A stretch of 64,000 nucleotides of DNA. Origin: a virus. Positions 10,609 to 32,340 of this stretch are shown here, piece after piece. Made by a program: the position numbers and the translations under genes. Within the stretch, counting starts at the first letter, position 1. Each line of letters begins with the position of its first letter. The stretch lies in the IMG/VR virus record IMGVR_UViG_3300045988_135688, one strand, 5' to 3'. The notes under the pieces are model-generated. The model was not told the DNA's origin. It saw only the letters and a program-made list of their open reading frames with translations, and ran no database searches.

Positions 10609-11145
10609 ATGACAAACCAAGAAATGTTTTTAAAGAGATTAACTCTCTTGAATATTCCTCTATCGCTAGAAGGAAAGGAACTTCCATCAGATTTGAAAGC
10701 AAAGATTATGCTTATGCGTGTATCTTACGACAAAGCTGCAAAAGCATTCGATGATGATATGCAACAGGTTCTTAAAGAAATAAAGAAGGAAGGATATGAC
10801 GAGCGCGCACAGAAAATCAATCGCATGAAAGAGATTGACGGTAAGGAAGATGCAACAAAAGAGGAAAAGAAAGAAGCGGATGAAATCAGAAAGACAGAAG
10901 AAGATTTCAACAAGGAAACAGAAGAACTGAACAAGGCATACTCCGAAGCATACCAAGAGAAAATGAAAGAGGAATGTGATATGAAGCCTAGATACTTCGC
11001 CTTTGAAGGATTCACTAAAATAATTGAACTCATTGGTACTGACGGTGCAATCAAGGTGAAATGGAACTCTCCCGAAGCATTGGAAATACCAAAGGAGGAA
11101 TTCATCTCGCTTATCGCAACAAACTTGGTAGATAACCTCGAATAA
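10609..11145 (+). CDS. Hypothetical Lys/Glu-rich coiled-coil protein (178 aa)
   Basis: ORF track; 14 nt after the previous ORF. Antisense ORFs in the same span look like low-complexity shadows. Confidence 0.6.
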   Translation: MTNQEMFLKRLTLLNIPLSLEGKELPSDLKAKIMLMRVSYDKAAKAFDDDMQQVLKEIKKEGYDERAQKINRMKEIDGKEDATKEEKKEADEIRKTEEDFNKETEELNKAYSEAYQEKMKEECDMKPRYFAFEGFTKIIELIGTDGAIKVKWNSPEALEIPKEEFISLIATNLVDNLE

Positions 11146-11173
11146 TATATAAGATATTAAAGTTTACTGTATA

Positions 11174-11392
11174 TTTTATATATGCTTCATTTGGAGTCAG
11201 GTTATTAGCCTAAGCACTTTGAGTGCTACGTTGGATGAGAATGATATATAGTTACCTACGGATGTTTACCCAAGTCTGTAGCTCTAAGTTAAGTGGTTAA
11301 AAGGAGTAGCGTATTCGGTGAAACGGTGCTGCTTATGAAAACCTCATCCAACATTGGCGATGGGTATTTAACGGGAGTAATCCCGACTTATG
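11174..11392 (+). ncRNA. Orphan IscB-type omega-RNA (HEARO-like) paralogue: ~20-nt candidate guide plus ~200-nt scaffold, no adjacent iscB
   Basis: ORF-free gap. Colinear blocks shared with the iscB leader (32131-32340 minus strand): AGTCAG start, GAGAAT..ATATAGTTACC, GAAAACCTC, CGATGnGnATTTAACGG, AATCC(C)GACTTAT. The 10-bp helix 11230-11239/11343-11352 is kept by compensatory substitutions relative to the iscB copy. GTAA tetraloop hairpin at 11372-11385. Confidence 0.6.
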
Positions 11393-11545: not shown

Positions 11546-12022
11546 ATGAATAAGCCGTTTTCTATATTGCTATTTTTTTTGTTACTGTCGTGTTCTTGTT
11601 CACGCAAGCTACTTCCATCTTCGACAAATACAACCATAGTAGACCACAACACGACAGTAACGGAAAGAGTAGTATGGCAATCAAAAATAATAACTCTTCC
11701 AACAGAACACATACAACATACAACATTTGAAGATAGTTCACACTTGGAAACATCATTAGCCGTATCAGACGCTAAAATAATGTCGGATGGCAGGCTTTTT
11801 CATAGTTTGAAAAACAAGAAAGACTTTCTACAAGACAGCATCCCATCCTTGGAAAAAGAAACGGTAGTGACGAAAGATTCGATAATAACCGTGGAGAAAA
11901 TTGTAGAAGTAAAGGTAGAAAAGGAATTGTCTAAATGGCAAAAAATACTAATCAATCTTGGATACATAGGTATCGGTTTCATATTGTTTTCAGGTTACAA
12001 AATAGCCCGAAAGTTCGTGTAA
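11546..12022 (+). CDS. Lipoprotein with C-terminal transmembrane anchor (unimolecular-spanin-like topology)
   Basis: N-terminus MNKPFSILLFFLLLSCSC (signal peptide plus lipobox Cys). C-terminal hydrophobic helix ILINLGYIGIGFILFSGY followed by KIARKFV. Confidence 0.6.
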   Translation: MNKPFSILLFFLLLSCSCSRKLLPSSTNTTIVDHNTTVTERVVWQSKIITLPTEHIQHTTFEDSSHLETSLAVSDAKIMSDGRLFHSLKNKKDFLQDSIPSLEKETVVTKDSIITVEKIVEVKVEKELSKWQKILINLGYIGIGFILFSGYKIARKFV

Positions 12023-12056
12023 CTTTCGGGCTTATTTTATTGGGGATTGATAAAAT

Positions 12057-13136
12057 TTATGGAGCGTAATCTTCAACCATATTATAGGTGGTATTTACCC
12101 TTGTGGCTCTTGCTGCAATATAATAATCATAAGAAAAATCTCTACTAACATTAAAGGAATACATAGATGATCTATATGTTCCTTTTGCCGGAACCTGTGC
12201 AGTAAGTCCTGTAAGTAATGAACCAGCATTTTCTCCAGCTTCTGGAACTGTTCTTGTCCTCATTAACACAAGAACTATACCACGTATAGTAACAGATGAC
12301 CCACTATTATTTGTTATAATGAAGTTGTATGTAATTTGGTTATTAGAAGAGTTCCATGTACCAAATGCTTCTATTACGTATAGAGATCCAGCTGCATGAA
12401 TAGTCATTGTTTTTGGTGTTACTGGAATAGGTATGTATATTCCTTGTTTTAATTCATCATCTACTCCTATTTTATTAGATGACAAGAAAAAAGCTACTTT
12501 CCATTTACCTACATAACTACCTATATTTAATAACCTTATAGATACTGAATCAGTAAACATACTTTCAGATGTTACTAAAATGTATCTAGTATTTTGTAAA
12601 AGTCCTACCCCTGCATACATTTCAGAAAATGGAGTTCCTTGATAGCTTAAATAGGATAGCAAAATGTTATCATCAGTATTTGTTGTCTGTTCAAGTTGTA
12701 TTTCTAGATTATTAGATGTGTCCAAATATACATCTGATGGAACGTCATCTCCAAAAGGAACTATAGCATTATGATTATATCCGTTGAAATCCAATATCCG
12801 ATAAGGTGCTGAATCTCCACCAGTAGGAGCATTATATCCCCAGTCTACACCATCAAAAAGGTCTTTTAGAAATCCGCTATTAAGCGTTCCTGGTGACATG
12901 TATCCCACTACACTTAGACCACATAAACCATCATTAGCTTTCCAATAATCAGAACGATAATCTAAGTATGGTTGCCTCACAGGTTTATATTTACTCCATT
13001 TATTTATTTTCCCATGCGTATTTGCACACGCATATCCCAAATCATAACCATCACTAGTAGGACCGATACCTAGAGTAGGATATACATCACTATCCAATCC
13101 GACAGGTGCGGTGATTTTACCGTTAGAGTGACCCAT
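12057..13136 (-). CDS. Cassette A large protein (359 aa); N-terminus paralogous to 29614-30624, C-terminus unrelated; putative receptor-binding / tail accessory protein
   Basis: MGHSNGKITAPVGLDSDVYPTLGIGPTSDGYDLGYAC aligns with MGHSNGKITAPINLGGDVYPTLGIGATSNGYDLGYAC of cassette B. The first 32 nt are identical in both copies. Function inferred from location in the tail operon. Confidence 0.7.
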   Translation of the reverse strand: MGHSNGKITAPVGLDSDVYPTLGIGPTSDGYDLGYACANTHGKINKWSKYKPVRQPYLDYRSDYWKANDGLCGLSVVGYMSPGTLNSGFLKDLFDGVDWGYNAPTGGDSAPYRILDFNGYNHNAIVPFGDDVPSDVYLDTSNNLEIQLEQTTNTDDNILLSYLSYQGTPFSEMYAGVGLLQNTRYILVTSESMFTDSVSIRLLNIGSYVGKWKVAFFLSSNKIGVDDELKQGIYIPIPVTPKTMTIHAAGSLYVIEAFGTWNSSNNQITYNFIITNNSGSSVTIRGIVLVLMRTRTVPEAGENAGSLLTGLTAQVPAKGTYRSSMYSFNVSRDFSYDYYIAARATRVNTTYNMVEDYAP

Positions 13137-13280
13137 AGACTACACCTCCACAAATTTATTGCAGACGATATTGCCGCCCATTGTCAAACTACCCGTCACA
13201 CGTACATCACCATCAATAATGACAGCTTGTGACAAATCAAACTCTTCTGGTACCTCACTACCATCTAAGGCTATTATCTC

Positions 13281-13356
13281 ATAAAGCCCCTCTGTCGGGC
13301 TAAAGCCCCTCTGTCGGGCTAAAGCCCCTCTGTCGGGCTAAAGCCCCTCTGTGCTC
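13281..13356. repeat. 19-nt tandem repeat x4 (minus strand unit GACAGAGGGGCTTTAGCCC)
   Basis: aaagcccctctgt recurs at 13283, 13302, 13321 and 13340 (period 19). Each junction forms GGGC-TTTA-GCCC. Confidence 0.9.
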
Positions 13357-13389
13357 CCTCGCTTCGCTTCGGTCGCACACCAAATTTCC
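13349..13389. other. 41-nt GC-rich box, identical to 30825-30865
   Basis: ctgtgctccctcgcttcgcttcggtcgcacaccaaatttcc is identical in both cassettes while the flanks have diverged. Contains TGTGC/GCACA closing arms and a GCGAAGC motif. Confidence 0.85.
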
Positions 13390-13402
13390 AGTAATAAACA
13401 AA

Positions 13403-13807
13403 CTAATCTTCATAATTATTATTTTTTAAATATTTTGTAACACTATTCATTACGCATTCTACACACCATCCTAAAAGATATGCAAAATGCTCGTCTTGTC
13501 CATTTTTATAACCCATAGAAATATCGCAATAGTCAAACACATCACAAACATAATGAGTTGATTCGTGAGCTACAGTATTTATTTTTAGACCATCATTTGA
13601 TAGCCAAATAAGTACACCTAAATTATTTGTACTTTTCTCTCTTACATTGATAGTCAAGCCATAACAGCGTTCAATTTCATCTTTAGATATATCTATCGGG
13701 TCATGATTGTGGTTGGTAAATTTTCTATTGATTTTTTTCCATTGGTCATTCCCCACTGCAACATACAGTTTAAGGGGATATATTTTAGGATCATATTTTG
13801 TTATCAT
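13403..13807 (-). CDS. Small putative zinc metallopeptidase (HExxH)
   Basis: 134-aa ORF with VAHESTHYV (HExxH). Its stop overlaps the start of small ORF A. Confidence 0.6.
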   Translation of the reverse strand: MITKYDPKIYPLKLYVAVGNDQWKKINRKFTNHNHDPIDISKDEIERCYGLTINVREKSTNNLGVLIWLSNDGLKINTVAHESTHYVCDVFDYCDISMGYKNGQDEHFAYLLGWCVECVMNSVTKYLKNNNYED

Positions 13808-20913: not shown

Positions 20914-22629
20914 ATGGAAGAAATTGATTTAAAATACAGAGGATTAAAGACTAAGGATGTTGTCAAATCGTTAAAACGATATGGCAAAAGGGGAATTATA
21001 CCATATAAAAGCCTTGATTTCGTCCAAAAATATATAGAGGACAGAAGAAGCAAGGGGTACAAGGTAAATTTGCTTGCCCCACAGAAAGGTTCGCAGGAAG
21101 CATTTTTAAGGAACAAGGCAGGAATAAAAATACTGCACGGGAATCGTGGGGGAGGAAAATCCGTATGCCTTGGAATGGATATACTGAGTTCATGCAACCA
21201 CCCGTCATTCTCCGCGCTCGTTTTCCGTAAGGATAAGACATCCGCAGAAAAAGCGGACGGTATTCTTAAAGTGGTTTCAAAAATGGTTGAACCTTATGGA
21301 GAATATATAGACTCTAAACGTCTTTCAAGATTGGATGCAGGTGGAGAAATACGATACGATTATTTCGGAGATGCATGCATATCAGGAGAAAAGGGTATAA
21401 ATGATTTTAAAGATAGACAACAAGGAGGTAATGTTGTTAAAGTAGTTGTAGACGAATGCTCACAGGCTACAGAACCGATTGTAAACTATCTTCAAACAGT
21501 ATTGCGTTCCTCCTCTGGACTTAGGACAAGTTTCTCAGGAGCTTGTAATCCAAACCCGTATAGTGACTATTGGAGAGAATTGGTATCATGGTGGGTAGAT
21601 GATGATGGGATAGCTATACCAGAACGTTCAGGTAAAGTAAGATATTTTTTTCAATATGGAGACACAATACATGAAACAGCATGGGGTGACAGCCCACAGG
21701 AAGTATTTGCTCAAGCAAAAGATTATATTATCGCAAGATTCGGTAAAAATACCAAAATTGATGAAACAAACTGCAAAAGATACATCAAAAATATAACCTT
21801 TATAGCTTCCGGACTTGAGGATAACAAGATTCTCATGAGTTCCAATCCTGATTATCAGAAAAATCTTGGAGGTACAGCCCAGGAAGTATCCATAAATGCA
21901 TTGGGATCATGGAAACTGATAAAAGGAGGGAACGAATGGATAACGAGAGACGAGATGGAGGAAATGTTCTCATCGCAGCCCGTGTTTGACGATTACTTTG
22001 AATGTGCTACACTGGATATAGCATACGGTCTTGGTGACGTTTGTGTAATGGGGCACTTCATAGGACATCACTTACAAGACCTGGAATGGTCAAACACATT
22101 AAAGCCAAGGGATTTAAACCGATGGGTAAGAAACAATCTACGGAAATGGGGAATCGGTGAAAACAGACTGGCATTTGACGGTCTTGGAGCACCTACATTC
22201 CGTGACGCATTTCCCGAAAGCCTGGCAATACTTAGAGGTGTTCCGAAAAGACTAGACAAAAGCAAGGATGATCAACCTGTAAGATTCTATTTCGATCTTA
22301 GGGCACAGCTTGCCGATGAAATGGTAACACGTATAAAAGGAACAAACTTAGGATATTGCGGATTCAGCATAAACCCGGAACTTCTCGACAAACCGTATGT
22401 AAACAAAACAATACGGGAAGCGTTGATGGACCAGAGAAGAGCAATAAGACGTGACGTGGAAAGGGAAAACGGGAAACTAAGACTTCTGAAAAAGCAGGAA
22501 GCAAAAAAGATTGTAGGATGCTCACCCGACTTGATAGAAGGAACATTTTTATACAGGACATATTTTGATATATGCGATGTAATGATTGACATACCTAACG
22601 ATATAATGGATGAATTAAAATATTTATAG
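20914..22629 (+). CDS. terL: Terminase large subunit
   Basis: Walker A GNRGGGKS, Walker B VVVDECSQ, C-terminal nuclease-sized domain; 571 aa. Confidence 0.9.
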   Translation: MEEIDLKYRGLKTKDVVKSLKRYGKRGIIPYKSLDFVQKYIEDRRSKGYKVNLLAPQKGSQEAFLRNKAGIKILHGNRGGGKSVCLGMDILSSCNHPSFSALVFRKDKTSAEKADGILKVVSKMVEPYGEYIDSKRLSRLDAGGEIRYDYFGDACISGEKGINDFKDRQQGGNVVKVVVDECSQATEPIVNYLQTVLRSSSGLRTSFSGACNPNPYSDYWRELVSWWVDDDGIAIPERSGKVRYFFQYGDTIHETAWGDSPQEVFAQAKDYIIARFGKNTKIDETNCKRYIKNITFIASGLEDNKILMSSNPDYQKNLGGTAQEVSINALGSWKLIKGGNEWITRDEMEEMFSSQPVFDDYFECATLDIAYGLGDVCVMGHFIGHHLQDLEWSNTLKPRDLNRWVRNNLRKWGIGENRLAFDGLGAPTFRDAFPESLAILRGVPKRLDKSKDDQPVRFYFDLRAQLADEMVTRIKGTNLGYCGFSINPELLDKPYVNKTIREALMDQRRAIRRDVERENGKLRLLKKQEAKKIVGCSPDLIEGTFLYRTYFDICDVMIDIPNDIMDELKYL

Positions 22630-23890
22630 GCAATTAAATACTAATTTACACATATTTAACTAAATTAGTTATGTTATAATTTAATTTATAGTTATATTTG
22701 TGACATGAAACGAGCATATAAATATAGACTTAATCCTACTCCTGAGCAGATTGTTTTCTTCAACAAATCTTTCGGGTGTTGTAGGTTTGTGTATAACTAT
22801 ATGCTTGGTAAACGTATAGAAGCGTATCAGCGTGACAAGACGAAGATAGGATGGGTTGAACTGGCTAAGATGCTTACAGAACTTAAAAAGGAAGATGGGA
22901 AGGAATGGCTTTCGGAAGTATCAAACGAGTGTCTGCAACAATCCATAAGAAATATGGACAGCGCGTTCGTGAAGTTCTTCCGTGAAAAGGCAGGGTTCCC
23001 AAATTTCAAGGCGAAGCATTACAGCCGACAGTCATACAAGGCTATAAATTCGGTGTCTGTTGACCTTGACAACAACAAGGTAAGACTTCCAAAGATCGGA
23101 TGGGTTAAATTCTTTCCGAACAGAAAGTTTGACGGTAAGGTATGTTCTGTCACGGTAAGCAAGACACCAACAGGTAAATATTTCATTTCTGTCCTTGTTG
23201 ACGATGGAAAGGAAATACCTGTAAAGCCTGCTGTAAGATATGATACGTCTATCGGTATAGATGTCGGTATAAAGGATTTTGCAGTTTGTTCAAACGGTGA
23301 TGTGTATGCCAATCCCAAATATCTTGAGAAATCGGAAGCAAGGCTAAAGGTGTTGCAAAGAAGATTCTCAAAGACAAAGAAAGGCTCCAACCGAAGAGAA
23401 CGGGCAAGAAAAATATTGGCAAGACAGTATGAGAAGGTTTCCAACCAACGCAACAATTTCCTGCATCAAGTCACATCAAAGATTGTCCGTGAAAACCAAA
23501 CGATAATCATTGAGGATTTGAATGTAAAGGGTATGTTGAAAAACCACCGTCTTGCAAAATCCATATCATCCGTTTCATGGAGCGAGTTTTTCCGACAGCT
23601 TGAATACAAGTGTGAATGGTATGGACGCAACCTTATACGTATCGGACGTTTTGAAGCAAGTTCCAAGACGTGTATATGCGGATACGTTAATAGTGAATTG
23701 AAACTCAGTGACCGTGAATGGGTTTGCCCGAAATGCGGAAGGCACAATGATCGTGACATTCTCGCTTCGGTGAACATCAAACGGTTCGGACTAATATCAC
23801 CCTTGGTAGAAGGGGTTGAGGACGTGGAGTGGTCGGCAGTAGTCGGGGCAGTGAAGCGTCAATATGTATATGTATAATTACCTGTATATA
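22621..23890 (+). mobile_element. IS200/IS605-like non-autonomous element carrying tnpB only (no tnpA)
   Basis: The left 180 nt (22621-22800) recur at 60918-61086 with ~96% identity in the coding part. Inserted exactly between the terL stop and the portal start. Boundaries are approximate. Confidence 0.6.
22705..23877 (+). CDS. tnpB: TnpB RNA-guided endonuclease (IS605 OrfB family)
   Basis: N-terminus KRAYKYRLNPTPEQ. RuvC motifs IGIDVGIKD, IIIEDLNVKGM, NDRDILASVNI. Zinc finger CICG...CPKCG. Confidence 0.9.
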   Translation: MKRAYKYRLNPTPEQIVFFNKSFGCCRFVYNYMLGKRIEAYQRDKTKIGWVELAKMLTELKKEDGKEWLSEVSNECLQQSIRNMDSAFVKFFREKAGFPNFKAKHYSRQSYKAINSVSVDLDNNKVRLPKIGWVKFFPNRKFDGKVCSVTVSKTPTGKYFISVLVDDGKEIPVKPAVRYDTSIGIDVGIKDFAVCSNGDVYANPKYLEKSEARLKVLQRRFSKTKKGSNRRERARKILARQYEKVSNQRNNFLHQVTSKIVRENQTIIIEDLNVKGMLKNHRLAKSISSVSWSEFFRQLEYKCEWYGRNLIRIGRFEASSKTCICGYVNSELKLSDREWVCPKCGRHNDRDILASVNIKRFGLISPLVEGVEDVEWSAVVGAVKRQYVYV

Positions 23891-23911
23891 ATTACCTATT
23901 TATAATTACCT
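23868..23911 (+). repeat. Three direct copies of TATAATTACCT spanning tnpB stop to portal ATG
   Basis: gTATAATTACCTgtataTAATTACCTatttaTAATTACCTatg, read directly. Confidence 0.8.
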
Positions 23912-25444
23912 ATGGAAATTTTAAAATTAGACGTTTTATTACGAAAAGAACCTTTCAAAGTGGCACTTCCGTCAAGAGGTGACGATGGGAGAGGTGGAGG
24001 AACAAAGAAAAAGCCAAGACGCTCCACTTTGATATACAAATATCTGTCACAGGATGACTTTCTAGCACAATGGGATACATCAGGACACTATATACACAAC
24101 AGACCCGACTGGAAAGACAGTATACCGTCAGACGAGGATGCCACATCATCGGATGATGAAAGCGCGAATGTAGGTGCTCAGAAAAGAAAAAAGAAATTGG
24201 CATCAACTCCATACGTACTGCAAAGACGAGCATTTCCTCTTCAAAGGATGATACACAAGAAAAGGGTATCACACCTATGCACCAATCCTCTTAAATTCCA
24301 GATAAAGAAAAGCGCGTCAAACCAGCAGAACAGGGATAAGCTGACAACATACAAGGAATACTGGACTGATTCTCTCATGGAAACAGCCAAGTTTGAACTT
24401 ATAAGCGAAGCCGGAAAGGTAGGGGATGCTGCCATATATATATATAAGGATAAGGACGAGATAAAATACAGGTCTTTCAGCTACTCAAAAGGAGATATAC
24501 TGTATGAACATAAAAACAGAAGAGGGGAAAGAATAGCTTTCGCAAGGGAATATACAACCACATATATCTCGGCTGATGGAGAAGAGCATACAGACACACT
24601 TGTCGATGTATGGACTAAAGATGAGTTTTACACGCTTGATTCCAACGGAGATATAGCAACGGATATTGACGAAAACGGAAATATCATACAACTGCATCAA
24701 TTCCATAACCTGGGATTTATACCTGTAGTATATCTACGGCTTGAACTTCCATTTTGGGGGGCAGTACAGGACTTGATAGACGATTTCGAGTTCTTAATGT
24801 CAATGATAGGAGAATACAACACACGACAGGCATTCCAAATGCTACTTATCAAGACTAACGGAAGAATAAACATTCAAAGAAACGGATTGGGAGGAACTTC
24901 CATTTTACGTGTAGGAGCAGAAGATGATGCACAGTTCATGGGTAAGATGGACGCTTCAAACTCACTGTTCACCGAAATAGATAACATATACAACGGGATA
25001 CTTGACGGAAGCGGTGTTGTTCCGCCAATGCAATCATCATCAGGTGACAGACCTACTGGAACAACGGCAATGTATTACGAGCCGGAAATGGAATGGGCGA
25101 GAAGTGATGCACAAATGATGAATACAGCCATAAATGACATGGCCAATATATTCAAATACTATGTAGGAGTAATGGAAGGTGACGCAACAGGTTATAACGC
25201 TCTAAGAATAAACGCTACCATAGAGCCATACTCGTACATAGATTTCTCTGAATGGAACAACACAATCGTTCAGCTTGTAAACGCCCGAATAATATCATTG
25301 CAGACAGCAAGAGAGGAATGCGATTTCGCTGCAAATAATGAAGATGATAGAATGGACGAACAAGACAGAAGATTAAACGATATGGAAGCTAGGGTAGTAA
25401 TAGAAGAAAACAATGAAAACAACGAAAACAACGATAACAGCTAA
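23912..25444 (+). CDS. Portal protein
   Basis: 510 aa, the next structural gene after terL (ignoring the tnpB insertion). Acidic C-terminal tail; size typical of portals. Confidence 0.75.
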   Translation: MEILKLDVLLRKEPFKVALPSRGDDGRGGGTKKKPRRSTLIYKYLSQDDFLAQWDTSGHYIHNRPDWKDSIPSDEDATSSDDESANVGAQKRKKKLASTPYVLQRRAFPLQRMIHKKRVSHLCTNPLKFQIKKSASNQQNRDKLTTYKEYWTDSLMETAKFELISEAGKVGDAAIYIYKDKDEIKYRSFSYSKGDILYEHKNRRGERIAFAREYTTTYISADGEEHTDTLVDVWTKDEFYTLDSNGDIATDIDENGNIIQLHQFHNLGFIPVVYLRLELPFWGAVQDLIDDFEFLMSMIGEYNTRQAFQMLLIKTNGRINIQRNGLGGTSILRVGAEDDAQFMGKMDASNSLFTEIDNIYNGILDGSGVVPPMQSSSGDRPTGTTAMYYEPEMEWARSDAQMMNTAINDMANIFKYYVGVMEGDATGYNALRINATIEPYSYIDFSEWNNTIVQLVNARIISLQTAREECDFAANNEDDRMDEQDRRLNDMEARVVIEENNENNENNDNS

Positions 25445-28837: not shown

Positions 28838-29624
28838 GATTGCAGACTATTACTTCCAAGCAAAAAGACTTGCAAACGGTATAAAATCGTCAACCAGAGA
28901 GCGTGCGGAGAAGTTCTCTAAAGACCTTCTAGCCATATTCCTTTTAGCAGGGGCTAAATCGTTCAAGTCAATATCAAAACTCCCGGATAGCCAAAAAGAA
29001 AAAGTGCTAGAACTGACCAAAAAGTTCCGTGAGGATATATATAACGACATATACCAATATGTACTGGAAAGCAATAAACTGTCACTAGAACTAAACGATG
29101 ATCTTGGATGGGAGTATATTTCAATGACGGACAACGGCATTAAGGAATACATGGAAAGGACATACGGTGGAGAAACGACAAAGCAGAGAATAAACACAAA
29201 TACAAACAGATTCCGCGCTGTTGTTGAAGTATATCTTGCCAATACATTACTGTCAATAAAAACGAACAATATAGAAAAAATAACGGATGAGGTTCAAAAG
29301 AAGATATGGAACAACATATCATCACCATATAACGTATCATTTATTCCGCCAAGCAAACAGAAACACTATGGGAGAGGATATGCTACAAACGGTATAAGCC
29401 AGTTGTATGTTATAGAACAACAGATGATTCTAGGAATTTTCAATGAAGCAAATTACAACTCATGGAAAAACATTCCAAATTTCAAGGGATGGAGGACAGC
29501 AGTAACGTCTAAAAATCCATGCCAGTTCTGCATTGACGAGCAATACAGAATACACACAGACAGACCTAAGCTGCCGTTCCATGCCCATTGCTTGTGTATA
29601 TTATATCCGGTGTTTAATACATAA
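28812..29624 (+). CDS. Head morphogenesis / minor capsid protein (SPP1 gp7 / Mu F-like)
   Basis: The C-terminal motif NPCQFCIDEQYRIHTDRPKLPFHAHCLCILYP resembles the conserved Cys/His end of the Mu F family. Confidence 0.65.
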   Translation: MINKEEISKIADYYFQAKRLANGIKSSTRERAEKFSKDLLAIFLLAGAKSFKSISKLPDSQKEKVLELTKKFREDIYNDIYQYVLESNKLSLELNDDLGWEYISMTDNGIKEYMERTYGGETTKQRINTNTNRFRAVVEVYLANTLLSIKTNNIEKITDEVQKKIWNNISSPYNVSFIPPSKQKHYGRGYATNGISQLYVIEQQMILGIFNEANYNSWKNIPNFKGWRTAVTSKNPCQFCIDEQYRIHTDRPKLPFHAHCLCILYPVFNT

Positions 29625-30624
29625 TAACTTGATAATCAACATACCATTGAGTAACATTACCATAAGATGGGGGATTACCAGCATCAACCACGTCATTACG
29701 GGTAAATGATTTAGGAATATTTGTGCACGAAGGCATCAATATATTACCTGACCATTGACCTGTATAAGATCCATCTTTCGCTCTCCATCTATATCTAGCG
29801 TATGGTCTGCCGGATGAAGCAACGTAATCACTAGAAGTGTTATTTGTAATGTTTAATCTGCATTTAGAAGAAGTAGACCCATTTGTCAACTGTCCGTAAA
29901 CAGAGAATCCAGAAGCGTTGGCTGTTGTATCTCCAAGTGTAATAGAAAGACTTTGAGTAACCACTATCGGCTTACGAATAAATCCGTCAGATGTAGTAGG
30001 GATTAAGCATAATACATTTCCACTGTAATCACAAAAATAACCCTTAATATAAATATATGTATCCCCCATAGATATGAGATTATTGCGATTAAGGGTAATT
30101 GAAATTTTTCCTGTACTATCAATACTACTTACAACGAAAACTCCAGAATCCACCAACTTCTTTAATTGATTATATACTTCCACCTTTATCTTCATATTAG
30201 ACCAAGTAAATCCCCCAAGTATTTTACCCCAATTATACCTAGAATCAGCCCAATATGGTGAAATTGTAAGTACAAACGTTGTCTTTGTAGCATCTACAGG
30301 ATTAGTTAGGATATCTTTATCTATTGTAAGAGGTTTAGCCCCATGATCGTATCCATCAAAATCAGTAAGCCTATACCATGTTTTAGGTCTATCATATACT
30401 AATTTCTTATTTACAGAATCATAAATTATACCAGGTAAACTAGCGTTGTCAAATGAAGGGCTAGACGCTTCTTTGGGTTTTATATAACTCCACATATTAA
30501 TTTTTTCGCTAAGACAAGCATACCCTAAATCATAGCCATTACTAGTAGCACCAATACCAAGGGTAGGATATACATCACCACCCAAATTAATGGGTGCGGT
30601 GATTTTACCGTTAGAGTGACCCAT
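29614..30624 (-). CDS. Cassette B large protein (336 aa from MGHSNG); paralogue of 12057-13136 at N-terminus only
   Basis: See cassette A. The ORF track starts at GTG 30630; the conserved ATG is at 30624. Confidence 0.7.
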   Translation of the reverse strand: MGHSNGKITAPINLGGDVYPTLGIGATSNGYDLGYACLSEKINMWSYIKPKEASSPSFDNASLPGIIYDSVNKKLVYDRPKTWYRLTDFDGYDHGAKPLTIDKDILTNPVDATKTTFVLTISPYWADSRYNWGKILGGFTWSNMKIKVEVYNQLKKLVDSGVFVVSSIDSTGKISITLNRNNLISMGDTYIYIKGYFCDYSGNVLCLIPTTSDGFIRKPIVVTQSLSITLGDTTANASGFSVYGQLTNGSTSSKCRLNITNNTSSDYVASSGRPYARYRWRAKDGSYTGQWSGNILMPSCTNIPKSFTRNDVVDAGNPPSYGNVTQWYVDYQVIMY

Positions 30625-30889
30625 AATCACCCCCTTCCTCTATAACGGTAAAAGAACCTTTACAAACAACAATGCCATTATAACTGATACTACGACAATG
30701 AATATCGCCATCAATTATAACAGCATCAGAAATGTCATAATCACTAGGAAGTTCCCCACCACATAGTGTTATAACTTCGACTGCCCCTGTGCAGCTAGAC
30801 TGCCCCTGTGCAGCTAGACTGCCCCTGTGCTCCCTCGCTTCGCTTCGGTCGCACACCAAATTTCCATTTACAAACAAATTAATTTTCAT
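30611..30889 (-). CDS. Cassette B small beta-helix-like protein (92 aa), intact, reads through a 19-nt tandem array
   Basis: ORF track. MKINLFVNGNLVCDRSEAREHRG... has the same N-terminus and 41-nt box as cassette A. Its start overlaps the iscB stop (ATGA). Confidence 0.65.
   Translation of the reverse strand: MKINLFVNGNLVCDRSEAREHRGSLAAQGQSSCTGAVEVITLCGGELPSDYDISDAVIIDGDIHCRSISYNGIVVCKGSFTVIEEGGDYGSL
30776..30832. repeat. 19-nt tandem repeat x3 (minus strand unit GCACAGGGGCAGTCTAGCT)
   Basis: gactgcccctgtgc at 30779, 30798 and 30817 (period 19). Forms a GCAG-TCTAG-CTGC hairpin. Confidence 0.9.
30825..30865. other. 41-nt GC-rich box, identical to 13349-13389
   Basis: Direct comparison of the two loci. 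Confidence 0.85.
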
Positions 30890-32130
30890 AAATTTACTTT
30901 CGTTCGCTTTTCAATTAATATACTTTTTCTTGTATCTATCAACCGCAAATGCTTACAATTGATAGAACCTTTGTTTACTTTTGTACCGTCAAGTTTCCGA
31001 ATATCAAAGTAACCACTATTTCTCCTACTAAAAATGTAATACAACTCTTTTTGGTATTCAACCAAGTCAAACAATCTAAATCCTTTCACTAAGAATGGTG
31101 CTTGATTGAGTTTCTTTCTGCCACCTTTCAAGAAATTAGCTTTGTGTATTTGTCTGTTTTGGCATCTTACCTTCTTCTGATAGAAATAATAACCTAAAGG
31201 TTTAGCCACAGGATTATCACTGATACACCTTGCATCAACATAATGCTCTTTAGGAAGATTGTTAGTGATACGGGTATTCTTCGTGATATAGCCAAAAGTC
31301 ATACTTACATTAGGATAGATATTCTTTAGCCTATCATAGAAACTCCATCGCATAATCCCCATAAAGGCAGCATTTCTAAATGACTTTCCACGCTTTACAT
31401 TTAATTCAAACTCACCTCTATGATATGCCTTATGGCAAGTTTCACAAAGGGTAATCAAGTTGTTTGGGCTATCACCTCCAGTCTTTCTGCTCTCTATGTG
31501 ATGCACATTCAAGACTTTATCTTTACTCTTACCCTTACAATGTTGGCAAATATGATTATCTCTAAATAACACATATTCACGCACATTGAAGAAATCAAGC
31601 TGTTCTCCTTGTTGGTATTCACTGCCAGATATACTTGGATTATTAATCTTTTGTATATCAAAAGCAGCCGTTTCAACTACGATATTAGTTATCGGTAGGA
31701 ACTTATGTATCTTCTCAACAATAGTCAAATGAGTTTGGATTTTGTTTTCAATAGATGGTGCTATCCAACCTTTACGCTTGGAAGATACCCTATTATTGAA
31801 ACGAGCCTTGCGATAACGAAGCCTACTCCTACGGGTTCTTCTTAATTCCCTACGAGTAGATAGCTTATCCACAATATCGTTTCTCAATTCCACATCTGCT
31901 GCATACAATTCCTTCTCACTTGTTGTTGCTGAAATGCCGATATGCTTGCTACCAGCATCTACACCCAAACTTACGGGCTGTGTATAATCTGTTGTGTCAT
32001 AATCCAATTGAATTGTGAACGGAATACGGCACACAACATGGGCTAGACTGTTTTTTAACAGCCTTCTCACCTTACCAAACCTTTCGGTTGGCATAAGTGC
32101 TTGTCCTTGTTTGTTAATTACGTAAACCAT
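30886..32130 (-). CDS. iscB: IscB RNA-guided nuclease (PLMP, split RuvC, bridge helix, HNH)
   Basis: VYVINKQGQALMPTERFGKVRRLL (PLMP). LGVDAGSKHIGISA (RuvC-I). Arg-rich RRELRRTRRSRLRYRKARFNNR. IVVETAAFD (RuvC-II). HNH CQHCKG...HHIESRKTGGDSPNNLITLCETCH. EHYVDARC (RuvC-III). Confidence 0.9.
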   Translation of the reverse strand: MVYVINKQGQALMPTERFGKVRRLLKNSLAHVVCRIPFTIQLDYDTTDYTQPVSLGVDAGSKHIGISATTSEKELYAADVELRNDIVDKLSTRRELRRTRRSRLRYRKARFNNRVSSKRKGWIAPSIENKIQTHLTIVEKIHKFLPITNIVVETAAFDIQKINNPSISGSEYQQGEQLDFFNVREYVLFRDNHICQHCKGKSKDKVLNVHHIESRKTGGDSPNNLITLCETCHKAYHRGEFELNVKRGKSFRNAAFMGIMRWSFYDRLKNIYPNVSMTFGYITKNTRITNNLPKEHYVDARCISDNPVAKPLGYYFYQKKVRCQNRQIHKANFLKGGRKKLNQAPFLVKGFRLFDLVEYQKELYYIFSRRNSGYFDIRKLDGTKVNKGSINCKHLRLIDTRKSILIEKRTKVNL

Positions 32131-32340
32131 TTTTACTATAAGTCGGATTTATCCGTTAAATGCTCATCGACAATGTTATAGAGAGGTTTTCCGTCAGTAA
32201 CACTATTCCTACCCCACAGAATTGTTTAATCACTGACCTTAGAGCAAGGGGCTTGAGCAAACACCCACTTGGTAACTATATATTCTCTCCTAACGCTTAG
32301 TCTAATCAACTTGGGCTTTTAGCCTAATGGGTAACTGACT
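30886..32340 (-). mobile_element. IscB-type OMEGA element (iscB plus omega-RNA scaffold, no tnpA)
   Basis: Span of the iscB ORF plus the scaffold homologous to 11195-11392. Ends are not defined. Confidence 0.55.

Follow-up and report, generated by a model that had tools for sequence, protein, structure and literature searches.

Hypermutable poly-G tracts have been described in the receptor-binding genes of Campylobacter phages (Sorensen et al. 2021, as cited in PMC12823448), and homopolymer tracts serve as contingency loci in T-even phages (PMC12633550). Here we analyse a stretch of 64,000 nt of viral DNA from the IMG/VR record IMGVR_UViG_3300045988_135688 (hereafter the window), which carries two related cassettes, A and B, each with a small leader open reading frame (ORF) that contains a 41-nt box and a tandem array of 19-nt units, followed by a large gene. 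The locus resembles the phage contingency loci in that the tract lies inside an ORF, changes in length faster than by point mutation, leaves its OFF alleles intact and is associated with a surface or host-interaction gene; relatives of the two cassettes, which we call type C, even use a poly-G tract of 6-10 nt. It differs from them in that the units are 19-nt hairpins, that the leader ORF and not a structural gene is interrupted, that an invariant 26-nt hairpin flanks the tract and that a single copy number, two full units (n = 2), is ON; moreover, reversible switching and a phenotypic effect are putative here.

Two further systems bear on the box. Mini-hairpins of the GCGAAGC/GCGGAGC type are recognised in phage priming and in the promoters of the N4 virion RNA polymerase, and their GCGNAGC consensus forms two G-C pairs and a sheared G.A pair (reviewed in PMC13037366). 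GCGAAGC likewise stands at the tip of the predicted fold of the box, with GCGGAGC as a natural variant, but the motif is embedded in a larger three-tier hairpin within a coding region and its structure is a prediction from sequence. In the Roseiflexus IS630 element, transcriptional slippage is stimulated by a stem-loop of the nascent RNA (PMC5009743); in both loci a frame change is needed at a point where a stable hairpin immediately precedes a short homopolymer, the difference being that in our case the genomic DNA itself varies and that the run is G4 in types A and B.

The window belongs to a tailed phage and encodes a terminase, a major head protein of the HK97 type and a tape-measure protein of 2059 aa. 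Related contigs (45-110 kb) were found in human-gut viromes and in metagenome-assembled genomes (MAGs) binned as Bacteroides and Odoribacter, and from this binning a Bacteroidales host is likely. In both cassettes the leader ORF (about 75-92 codons in the family) opens with codons that read MKI(S/N)LF..GNLVC, after which come the 26-nt hairpin module, a short G-run, the 19-nt array and the rest of the ORF. The 41-nt box and a second box of 32 nt both lie in coding sequence on the minus strand (coordinates are given in Table 1).

Copy number of the 19-nt units and the frame of the leader ORF

Since 19 is not a multiple of 3, each gain or loss of a unit shifts the reading frame of the leader, and n = 2 is the only ON state because one frame of the unit carries TAG. 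Among 97 distinct complete cassettes, 0, 1, 2, 3, 4, 5, 6 and 7 full units were counted in 10, 23, 29, 16, 12, 1, 4 and 2 cassettes, respectively; the leader was in frame at n = 2 only (29/97) and stopped after 25-37 codons in all other states. Of the window's two cassettes, B is ON with n = 2 and A is OFF with n = 3. The C-terminal part of leader A (SPTEGLYEII...KFVEV*) is nevertheless open in another frame down to position 13140, and removal of one unit (n = 2) would fuse both parts into an 84-aa protein that is seen in relatives.

Cassettes with identical 378-nt flanks were found to differ in copy number (sets of n = 2, 3 and 6; 3 and 5; 1 and 3; 4 and 7), and n differed in 18 of the 20 cassette pairs having at most three flank mismatches. 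The downstream frame of the leader was open in all 97 cassettes, with a ratio of nonsynonymous to synonymous polymorphism (pN/pS) of 0.27-0.37 that points to purifying selection in the OFF alleles. In some lineages with n = 0 or n = 1 the frame is restored by indels or insertions of 1-2 nt in the G-run beside the box. Comparison of these cassettes shows a hypervariable array that toggles the frame between otherwise identical genomes, the OFF alleles not decaying, and the locus shares four features with tandem-repeat contingency loci: a unit length not divisible by 3, a variable n, a toggled frame and the retention of OFF alleles.

Each unit is predicted to form a 4-bp hairpin with a YTAG loop. 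The stems of the A and B units differ in sequence, each being self-complementary, and the loop is common to both. The stem is intact in all 11 unit variants, one B variant showing a compensatory change (GCAG/CTGC to GCAT/ATGC) and two others giving G.T wobble pairs; one array (L082) is without TAG. Reassignment of a stop codon was considered and rejected, the only tRNA being tRNA-Cys and the out-of-frame A allele containing several stop codons.

The initial annotation of this DNA, made from the letters alone, had missed the array, which is the key feature of the region: the box is one end of a hypervariable, frame-setting 19-nt array, at the start of what had been called the variable core.

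An independent but comparable arrangement is found in the type C relatives, where a different hairpin, with the stem CTGCTG/CAGCAG and the loop CTCGG (CTGCTGCTCGGCAGCAG; compensatory variant CTGTTG...CAACAG), occupies the same codon position of the leader and is followed by a poly-G tract that sets the frame according to its length (L105, L108, L112, L123, L139, L184-L195 and others). In 24 loci this tract measured 6, 7, 8, 9 or 10 nt, leaving 10 leaders in frame and 14 out of frame. The type D relatives have no insert and an intact leader ORF of 75 codons. From types C and D together, a hairpin followed by a slippery tract recurs at the position after GNLxC. Cassettes of types A, B and C occur together in several genomes, type C often being found in the same genomes as A or B.

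Conservation of the two boxes

The identity of both boxes between the cassettes, which had been the starting observation, was recovered at all four positions, and shuffled sequences gave no match even at 3 mismatches. The lengths needed a small correction, since the identity extends one base further in each case (42 and 33 nt). The next longest word common to both regions has only 16 nt, so the edges of the boxes are sharp. Around them, cassettes A and B are 79% identical in the 24 nt before the 41-mer, 60% in the leader tail, and 74% over nt 33-150 of the large ORF, the remainder of which (61%) is at about the level expected for unrelated sequence. The 41-mer is also richer in GC than its surroundings, as had been reported: its GC content is 59%, rising to 65% in the right 26 nt, while the cassettes have 37%.

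Both boxes had been taken to be conserved at the nucleotide level above any constraint on the protein. For the 41-mer this stands in its right 26 nt, the left 15 nt being the GNLVC codons. Along the leader of the 97 distinct cassettes, synonymous and nonsynonymous polymorphism amounted to pS 0.33 and pN 0.04 in codons 1-8, pS fell to 0.05 in the GNLVC codons, and the right part of the box had a pS of 0.000 and a pN of 0.023. Across about 130 cassettes no synonymous change was seen in the right 26 nt, and the only variants there (G25A, A26G, G34A and A35T) are all nonsynonymous and all fall at unpaired positions of the predicted fold. This GA-rich segment is without T, so that no stop codon is possible in any sense frame. 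The predicted fold has three tiers, a UGUGC/GCACA closing stem, a CC/GG tier and a GC-GAA-GC tip, and as RNA it reaches -12.7 kcal/mol (z -2.9); the stem change C15U leaves a G.U pair, and the loop bases are conserved as strongly as those of the stem. The GCGNAGC consensus is fitted by the canonical box (103 of 132) and by the GCGGAGC variant (5), but not by the GCAAAGC variant (22). Alternative starts in three frames (MRPK..., MEIW...) were examined as the source of the constraint and rejected, since the alternative ATG is not conserved and the GNLVC strand is homologous in relatives without the insert. In a search of the window at gathering thresholds no Rfam family was found at the box, the only matches being two HEARO RNAs and one tRNA.

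When IMG/VR was scanned with the 22-nt core of the box, 104 stretches were returned, all with the same gene context and with 0 to at least 6 units after the core. A second scan, in which a degenerate 32-mer pattern was used so that the box played no part, added 26 cassettes with exactly one difference in the 41-mer and one with the core deleted; the remaining new loci had no box or were cut off before its position, without intermediate cases. No diverged or intermediate copy of the box was found in the 1.66 Mb of fetched loci.

The 32-mer behaves differently. It was followed in 79 related cassettes that had been collected through the 41-mer core and are therefore unbiased for the 32-mer. Here 14 variants were seen, with up to 6 differences that fall nearly all at third codon positions (pS 0.20, pN 0.004). 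Nucleotide-level constraint on this box is thus not borne out, the relatives showing the ordinary synonymous drift that the initial annotation had itself named as evidence to the contrary. By its pattern of codon change, the 32-mer is the N-terminus of the large gene, conserved at the protein level (first 11 codons, MGHSNGKITAP), and no cis element; it also overlaps the last leader codons in B- and C-type cassettes.

The leader protein and the large gene

Leader B has more than 100 homologues, all of them unnamed or annotated as hypothetical. The large proteins of A and B, which had been described as unrelated beyond about 45 residues, can in fact be aligned with a gap to about residue 124 at 44% identity; about 125 N-terminal residues are common to the large proteins, and many homologues join this same N-terminus to unrelated C-termini. 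The AlphaFold 2 (AF2) model of large protein A, with a predicted local distance difference test score (pLDDT) of 90, consists of an N-terminal region and two beta-sandwich domains, for which Foldseek returned only generic folds of the immunoglobulin (Ig)/FN3-like beta-sandwich kind and uncharacterised gut-phage proteins. A sequence search of the PDB gave no significant match. A tail-fibre gene precedes the MGHSNGKITAP gene in other phages, and its C-terminus, on inspection of the translation, resembles an S74-type intramolecular chaperone domain. The product of the large gene is probably a virion surface or receptor-binding-type protein.

In all types the stop codon of the leader abuts or overlaps the start of the large gene, and in cassette A it lies 4 nt ahead of the large ORF. 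A truncated large ORF was found in 9 of 56 OFF cassettes and in none of 25 ON cassettes (one-sided hypergeometric p of about 0.03, for samples that are not independent), which is suggestive of a leader state that matters only while the large gene is alive. Four of the nine (L047, L064, L087 and L092, all OFF) switch to unrelated AT-rich sequence after ...DSVNKK, at about codon 74, probably through insertion of a mobile element.

A probable frameshift switch and the points that weigh against it

We consider with moderate confidence that the locus is a contingency-type hypermutable frameshift switch in the leader ORF of a variable Ig-like-domain gene, with the 41-mer as its constant hairpin module. 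The switch itself is well supported by the copy-number comparisons; the role of the box is one that we infer, and among the cis-acting roles proposed for it in the initial annotation the one that fits best is a signal formed by an RNA or DNA hairpin and linked to control of the reading frame. Under this explanation, replication slippage or unequal recombination would add and remove 19-nt units, and these changes, together with those of 1-2 nt in the G-run, would bring the last two-thirds of the leader into frame or out of it, allowing fast and reversible switching within the phage population. A leader translated to its end could then control the abutting large gene, through termination-reinitiation coupling or through relief of polarity, and the population would hedge its bets among two or three alternative surface proteins. 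The box would be conserved for a sequence-specific fold, composed of the GCGAAGC mini-hairpin, candidate tandem G.A pairs and the 5-bp closing stem. In the least certain step, this fold would most probably promote or anchor slippage at the adjacent G-run and repeats, or else serve as an RNA signal.

Several points weigh against this explanation. Copy numbers were taken from assemblies, mostly of short-read metagenomes, in which the length of arrays that exceed the assembler k-mer may be wrong, and at least 15 contigs break off within the array or next to it. The ON share is only 30% of the cassettes, no more than a random frame would give. As DNA, the fold of the box (-4.5 kcal/mol, z -1.1) is barely better than that of shuffled sequences; its commonest variant, GCAAAGC (22 of 132), falls outside the GCGNAGC mini-hairpin consensus; and a slippage-promoting hairpin has no obvious need for the conservation of every loop base. 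As to the functions of the two proteins, neither the small nor the large one has a Pfam or PHROG match, the AlphaFold model of the leader protein is unusable (pLDDT 38), and it is geometry alone that suggests the coupling of the leader to the large gene. In regards to the first of these points, the classes n = 0, 1 and 2 are short enough to be sized reliably, and they already differ.

The contigs ending in or beside the array are L004, L007, L010, L015, L031, L053, L060, L068, L071, L078, L082, L085, L086, L088, L095, L098 and others. That so many end there means that assemblers struggle at the array, and the breaks are ascribed to the two-copy box, to mixed array lengths within a sample, or to both.

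The GGG of the box and the G-runs that recur every 19 nt add up to at least four G-tracts on the sense strand, with hairpin-forming loops (13282-13374 and 30779-30850, minus strand). From their spacing, a long-loop G-quadruplex formed by the tracts of box and array is possible.

Alternative explanations

The boxes could instead be recombination linkers or conversion tracts that let cassettes A and B, or those of phages infecting the same cell, exchange modules; repeated conversion would then keep them identical, and they would have no other function. Exchange across the box, as had been proposed, is certainly observed: all four combinations of 5' haplotype and repeat type occur (7, 6, 22 and 61), as do all four of box variant and unit type and of leader type and N-terminal class of the large ORF, there are chimeric proteins with B-type units and an A-type tail (P0098 and P0102), and genomes carry A+B, A+A or B+B pairs of cassettes. 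Such exchange recalls the module linkers and N-terminal anchors of phage tail fibres, in that the 32-mer and the first ~125 residues are joined to unrelated C-termini and mosaics are common, with the difference that the 32-mer is conserved at the protein level only and drifts normally. Conversion within a genome as the source of the identity fails, since the two boxes of one genome were the same in 24 and different in 10 of 34 genomes; about 22 identical pairs are expected from the variant frequencies in the population, so the identity reflects population-wide conservation and not recent local conversion, and there is no sign of concerted evolution. Linkers would also leave unexplained the restriction of changes to nonsynonymous ones at unpaired positions, the divergence of the adjacent units beside a constant box, and the occurrence of the 26-mer as a hairpin cap in a Gemmatimonadota MAG (see below). 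We therefore regard a purely linking function as unlikely.

A similarly improbable alternative is that the 26-mer is specifically bound by a factor of the phage or its host, such as a nuclease, primase, polymerase or translational repressor, and that this binding causes the instability or regulates the cassette. Loop bases as conserved as the stem are typical of sequence-specific recognition, and the box variant A26G is GCGGAGC, a member of the mini-hairpin class that is recognised elsewhere (PMC13037366). The same core also stands at hairpin tips in unrelated bacteria. Outside this phage context the exact 26-mer was found once in 596 Gb of bacterial and archaeal genomes, in a Gemmatimonadota MAG, where it caps a hairpin of 90 nt (-67 kcal/mol, z -8.5); we estimate the chance expectation for such a match at about 0.001 or less. 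Two more GC-rich metagenome contigs contain the 22-mer core, closed in one of them by CGCGGC/GCCGCG, and in two of the three contigs (L180, L182 and L183) the core tips longer hairpins whose closing stems differ. Rfam gave no match at E<=1 for the L180 locus around the motif. These occurrences suggest that the box core is a self-contained, very stable hairpin cap, which would explain the near-fixation of every base; alternatively, it could be a binding site for something widespread. Against a dedicated factor, no candidate has been identified, the box is confined in phages to this one gene context, and the type C relatives have a wholly different hairpin. Nor do the omega-RNA guides point to it: as the initial annotation had said, they do not match the boxes, a comparison of the 5' flanks of these RNAs with the whole window giving no 14-nt match with up to 2 mismatches to either box or its surroundings.

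Recoding is a third alternative, and quite an unlikely one, in which mRNA hairpins would let the ribosome bypass the extra units, or hairpin-stimulated slippage of RNA polymerase on the G-run would correct the frame, so that OFF genotypes would make some full-length leader. Arrays with n>=3 stop in frame 0 at a UAG in the hairpin loop of the third unit, the P-site codon before it (GUC in B, CUU in A) recurs in the correct frame 19 nt or a multiple of 19 downstream, in the last partial unit, and the YTAG loop is kept between A and B units though their stems differ. Upstream, the box would fold into a stable hairpin in the RNA, the tail is intact and constrained in OFF alleles, and a hairpin directly 5' of a short homopolymer is the architecture of the Roseiflexus IS630 slippage (PMC5009743). 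However, matched codons are given automatically, and trivially expected, in any tandem repeat. A forward hop cannot rescue the n = 0 and n = 1 alleles (33/97), and a one-base deletion in the transcript at the first G-run would rescue n = 0 only. Lineages with n = 0 or 1 have fixed indels of 1-2 nt that restore the frame for standard decoding, the TAG is lost in array L082, and type C obtains the same effect with a plain poly-G tract.

A specific form of this idea, programmed translational bypass in the n>=3 arrays, would involve a stall at UAG, take-off from GUC or CUU, landing in the last partial unit and forward sliding driven by the box; the product would be the same leader protein as at n = 2, at an efficiency that depends on how many units are skipped. 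The parallel with bypass in T4 gene 60 lies in a take-off codon and UAG within a hairpin, a matching landing codon in frame and a stable upstream hairpin. The take-off site would lie in the predicted 4-bp unit hairpin, which has a compensatory variant and a low stability. The locus is not homologous to gene 60, its gap would consist of repeat sequence (19 nt or a multiple of 19), it is not known to encode a nascent-peptide signal, and the frame-restoring DNA indels of the relatives argue for standard decoding; we hold this form to be very doubtful. If true, it would add to T4 gene 60 a second, independent example of natural bypass, one with a tunable gap.

Finally, that the box has no special meaning, being a young insertion not yet diverged or a chance identity in a conserved gene, is highly improbable: it is true that the box is either nearly identical or absent, without a graded series, but the flanks and adjacent units have diverged between A and B (60-79% identity), neighbouring codons in the same cassettes have a pS of 0.05-0.33, and the chance expectation is zero.

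Neighbouring elements

Cassette B lies next to an IscB gene and its omega RNA, which are context and no part of the frameshift switch (Table 1). The hexamer AAATTT precedes the leader ATG in about a dozen further IMG/VR loci, of both A and B type, and in L175 the sequence upstream is IscB-like. The 158-aa ORF that follows the second HEARO-type RNA was considered as an IscB fragment and rejected, being unrelated to IscB; BLAST against phage records returned HEARO matches only. The transposase at 22705-23877 is possibly of the TnpB/IS605 type. A 14-nt tandem repeat of 3.2 copies lies at 23869-23913.

Table 1. Positions of the cassette elements and of neighbouring features in the window, and of the box core in unrelated contigs
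Feature	Position	Strand	Remarks
41-nt box A	13349-13389	-	13375-13389, GNLVC codons; 13349-13374, 26-nt module GACCGAAGCGAAGCGAGGGAGCACAG; exact copy of box B
41-nt box B	30825-30865	-	30851-30865, GNLVC codons; 30825-30850, hairpin module
19-nt array A	13282-13352	-	Unit AGGGGCTTTAGCCCGACAG; 3 full units and a partial one, one unit over for the frame; 3.7 copies with 100% matches in Tandem Repeats Finder (TRF)
19-nt array B	30779-30830	-	Unit GGGCAGTCTAGCTGCACAG; 2 full units and a partial one, in frame; TRF 2.7 copies with 100% matches
Leader ORF A (OFF)	13140-13413	-	Frame 0 ends after 37 codons at TAG 13300-13302 in the third unit
Leader ORF B (ON)	30611-30889	-	Intact, 92 aa; stop 14 nt inside large ORF B
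32-nt box A	13105-13136	-	First 32 nt of large ORF A (MGHSNGKITAP)
32-nt box B	30593-30624	-	First 32 nt of large ORF B; overlaps the end of leader B
Large ORF A	12057-13136	-	359 aa; conserved N-terminal region and two predicted beta-sandwich (Ig/FN3-like) domains (AF2)
Large ORF B	29614-30624	-	336 aa from the ATG at 30624; N-terminal region common with A, C-terminal part different
134-aa ORF upstream of cassette A	13403-13807	-	Directly upstream; HExxH-like AHESTH; match to phrog_1365 (family of unknown function); stop overlaps the start region of leader A
IscB gene	30886-32130	-	Complete, 414 aa; Pfam RRXRR and HNH; directly upstream of leader B, stop overlaps the leader ATG
HEARO/omega RNA of IscB	32155-32339	-	Rfam RF02033, 92 bits
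Second HEARO-type RNA	11132-11372	+	86 bits; no IscB gene behind it
158-aa ORF after the second HEARO	11546-12022	+	Converges with the HEARO on cassette A across a strong bidirectional terminator (12004-12032)
Transposase gene	22705-23877	+	phrog_506, E 1e-130; directly after the terminase large subunit gene (20914-22629)
Exact box core in unrelated GC-rich contigs, one a Gemmatimonadota MAG	L180 3704-3729; L182 1005-1030; L183 2994-3019	-	

Implications

To our knowledge, contingency loci of phages have been recognised only recently and so far as homopolymer tracts only. What appears to be new here is a widespread gut-phage switch in the leader ORFs of two or three paralogous Ig-like-domain genes, built from an invariant hairpin, a G-run and 19-nt hairpin units. 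Such a switch would explain the assembly breaks and the apparently frameshifted genes in these genomes, and the 26-mer, which tolerates almost no change, is a compact and testable cis-element. If the switch controls the large proteins, a phage population would be a mix of particles with different surface equipment, by which it could counter the phase-variable capsules of Bacteroidales hosts in a simple way.

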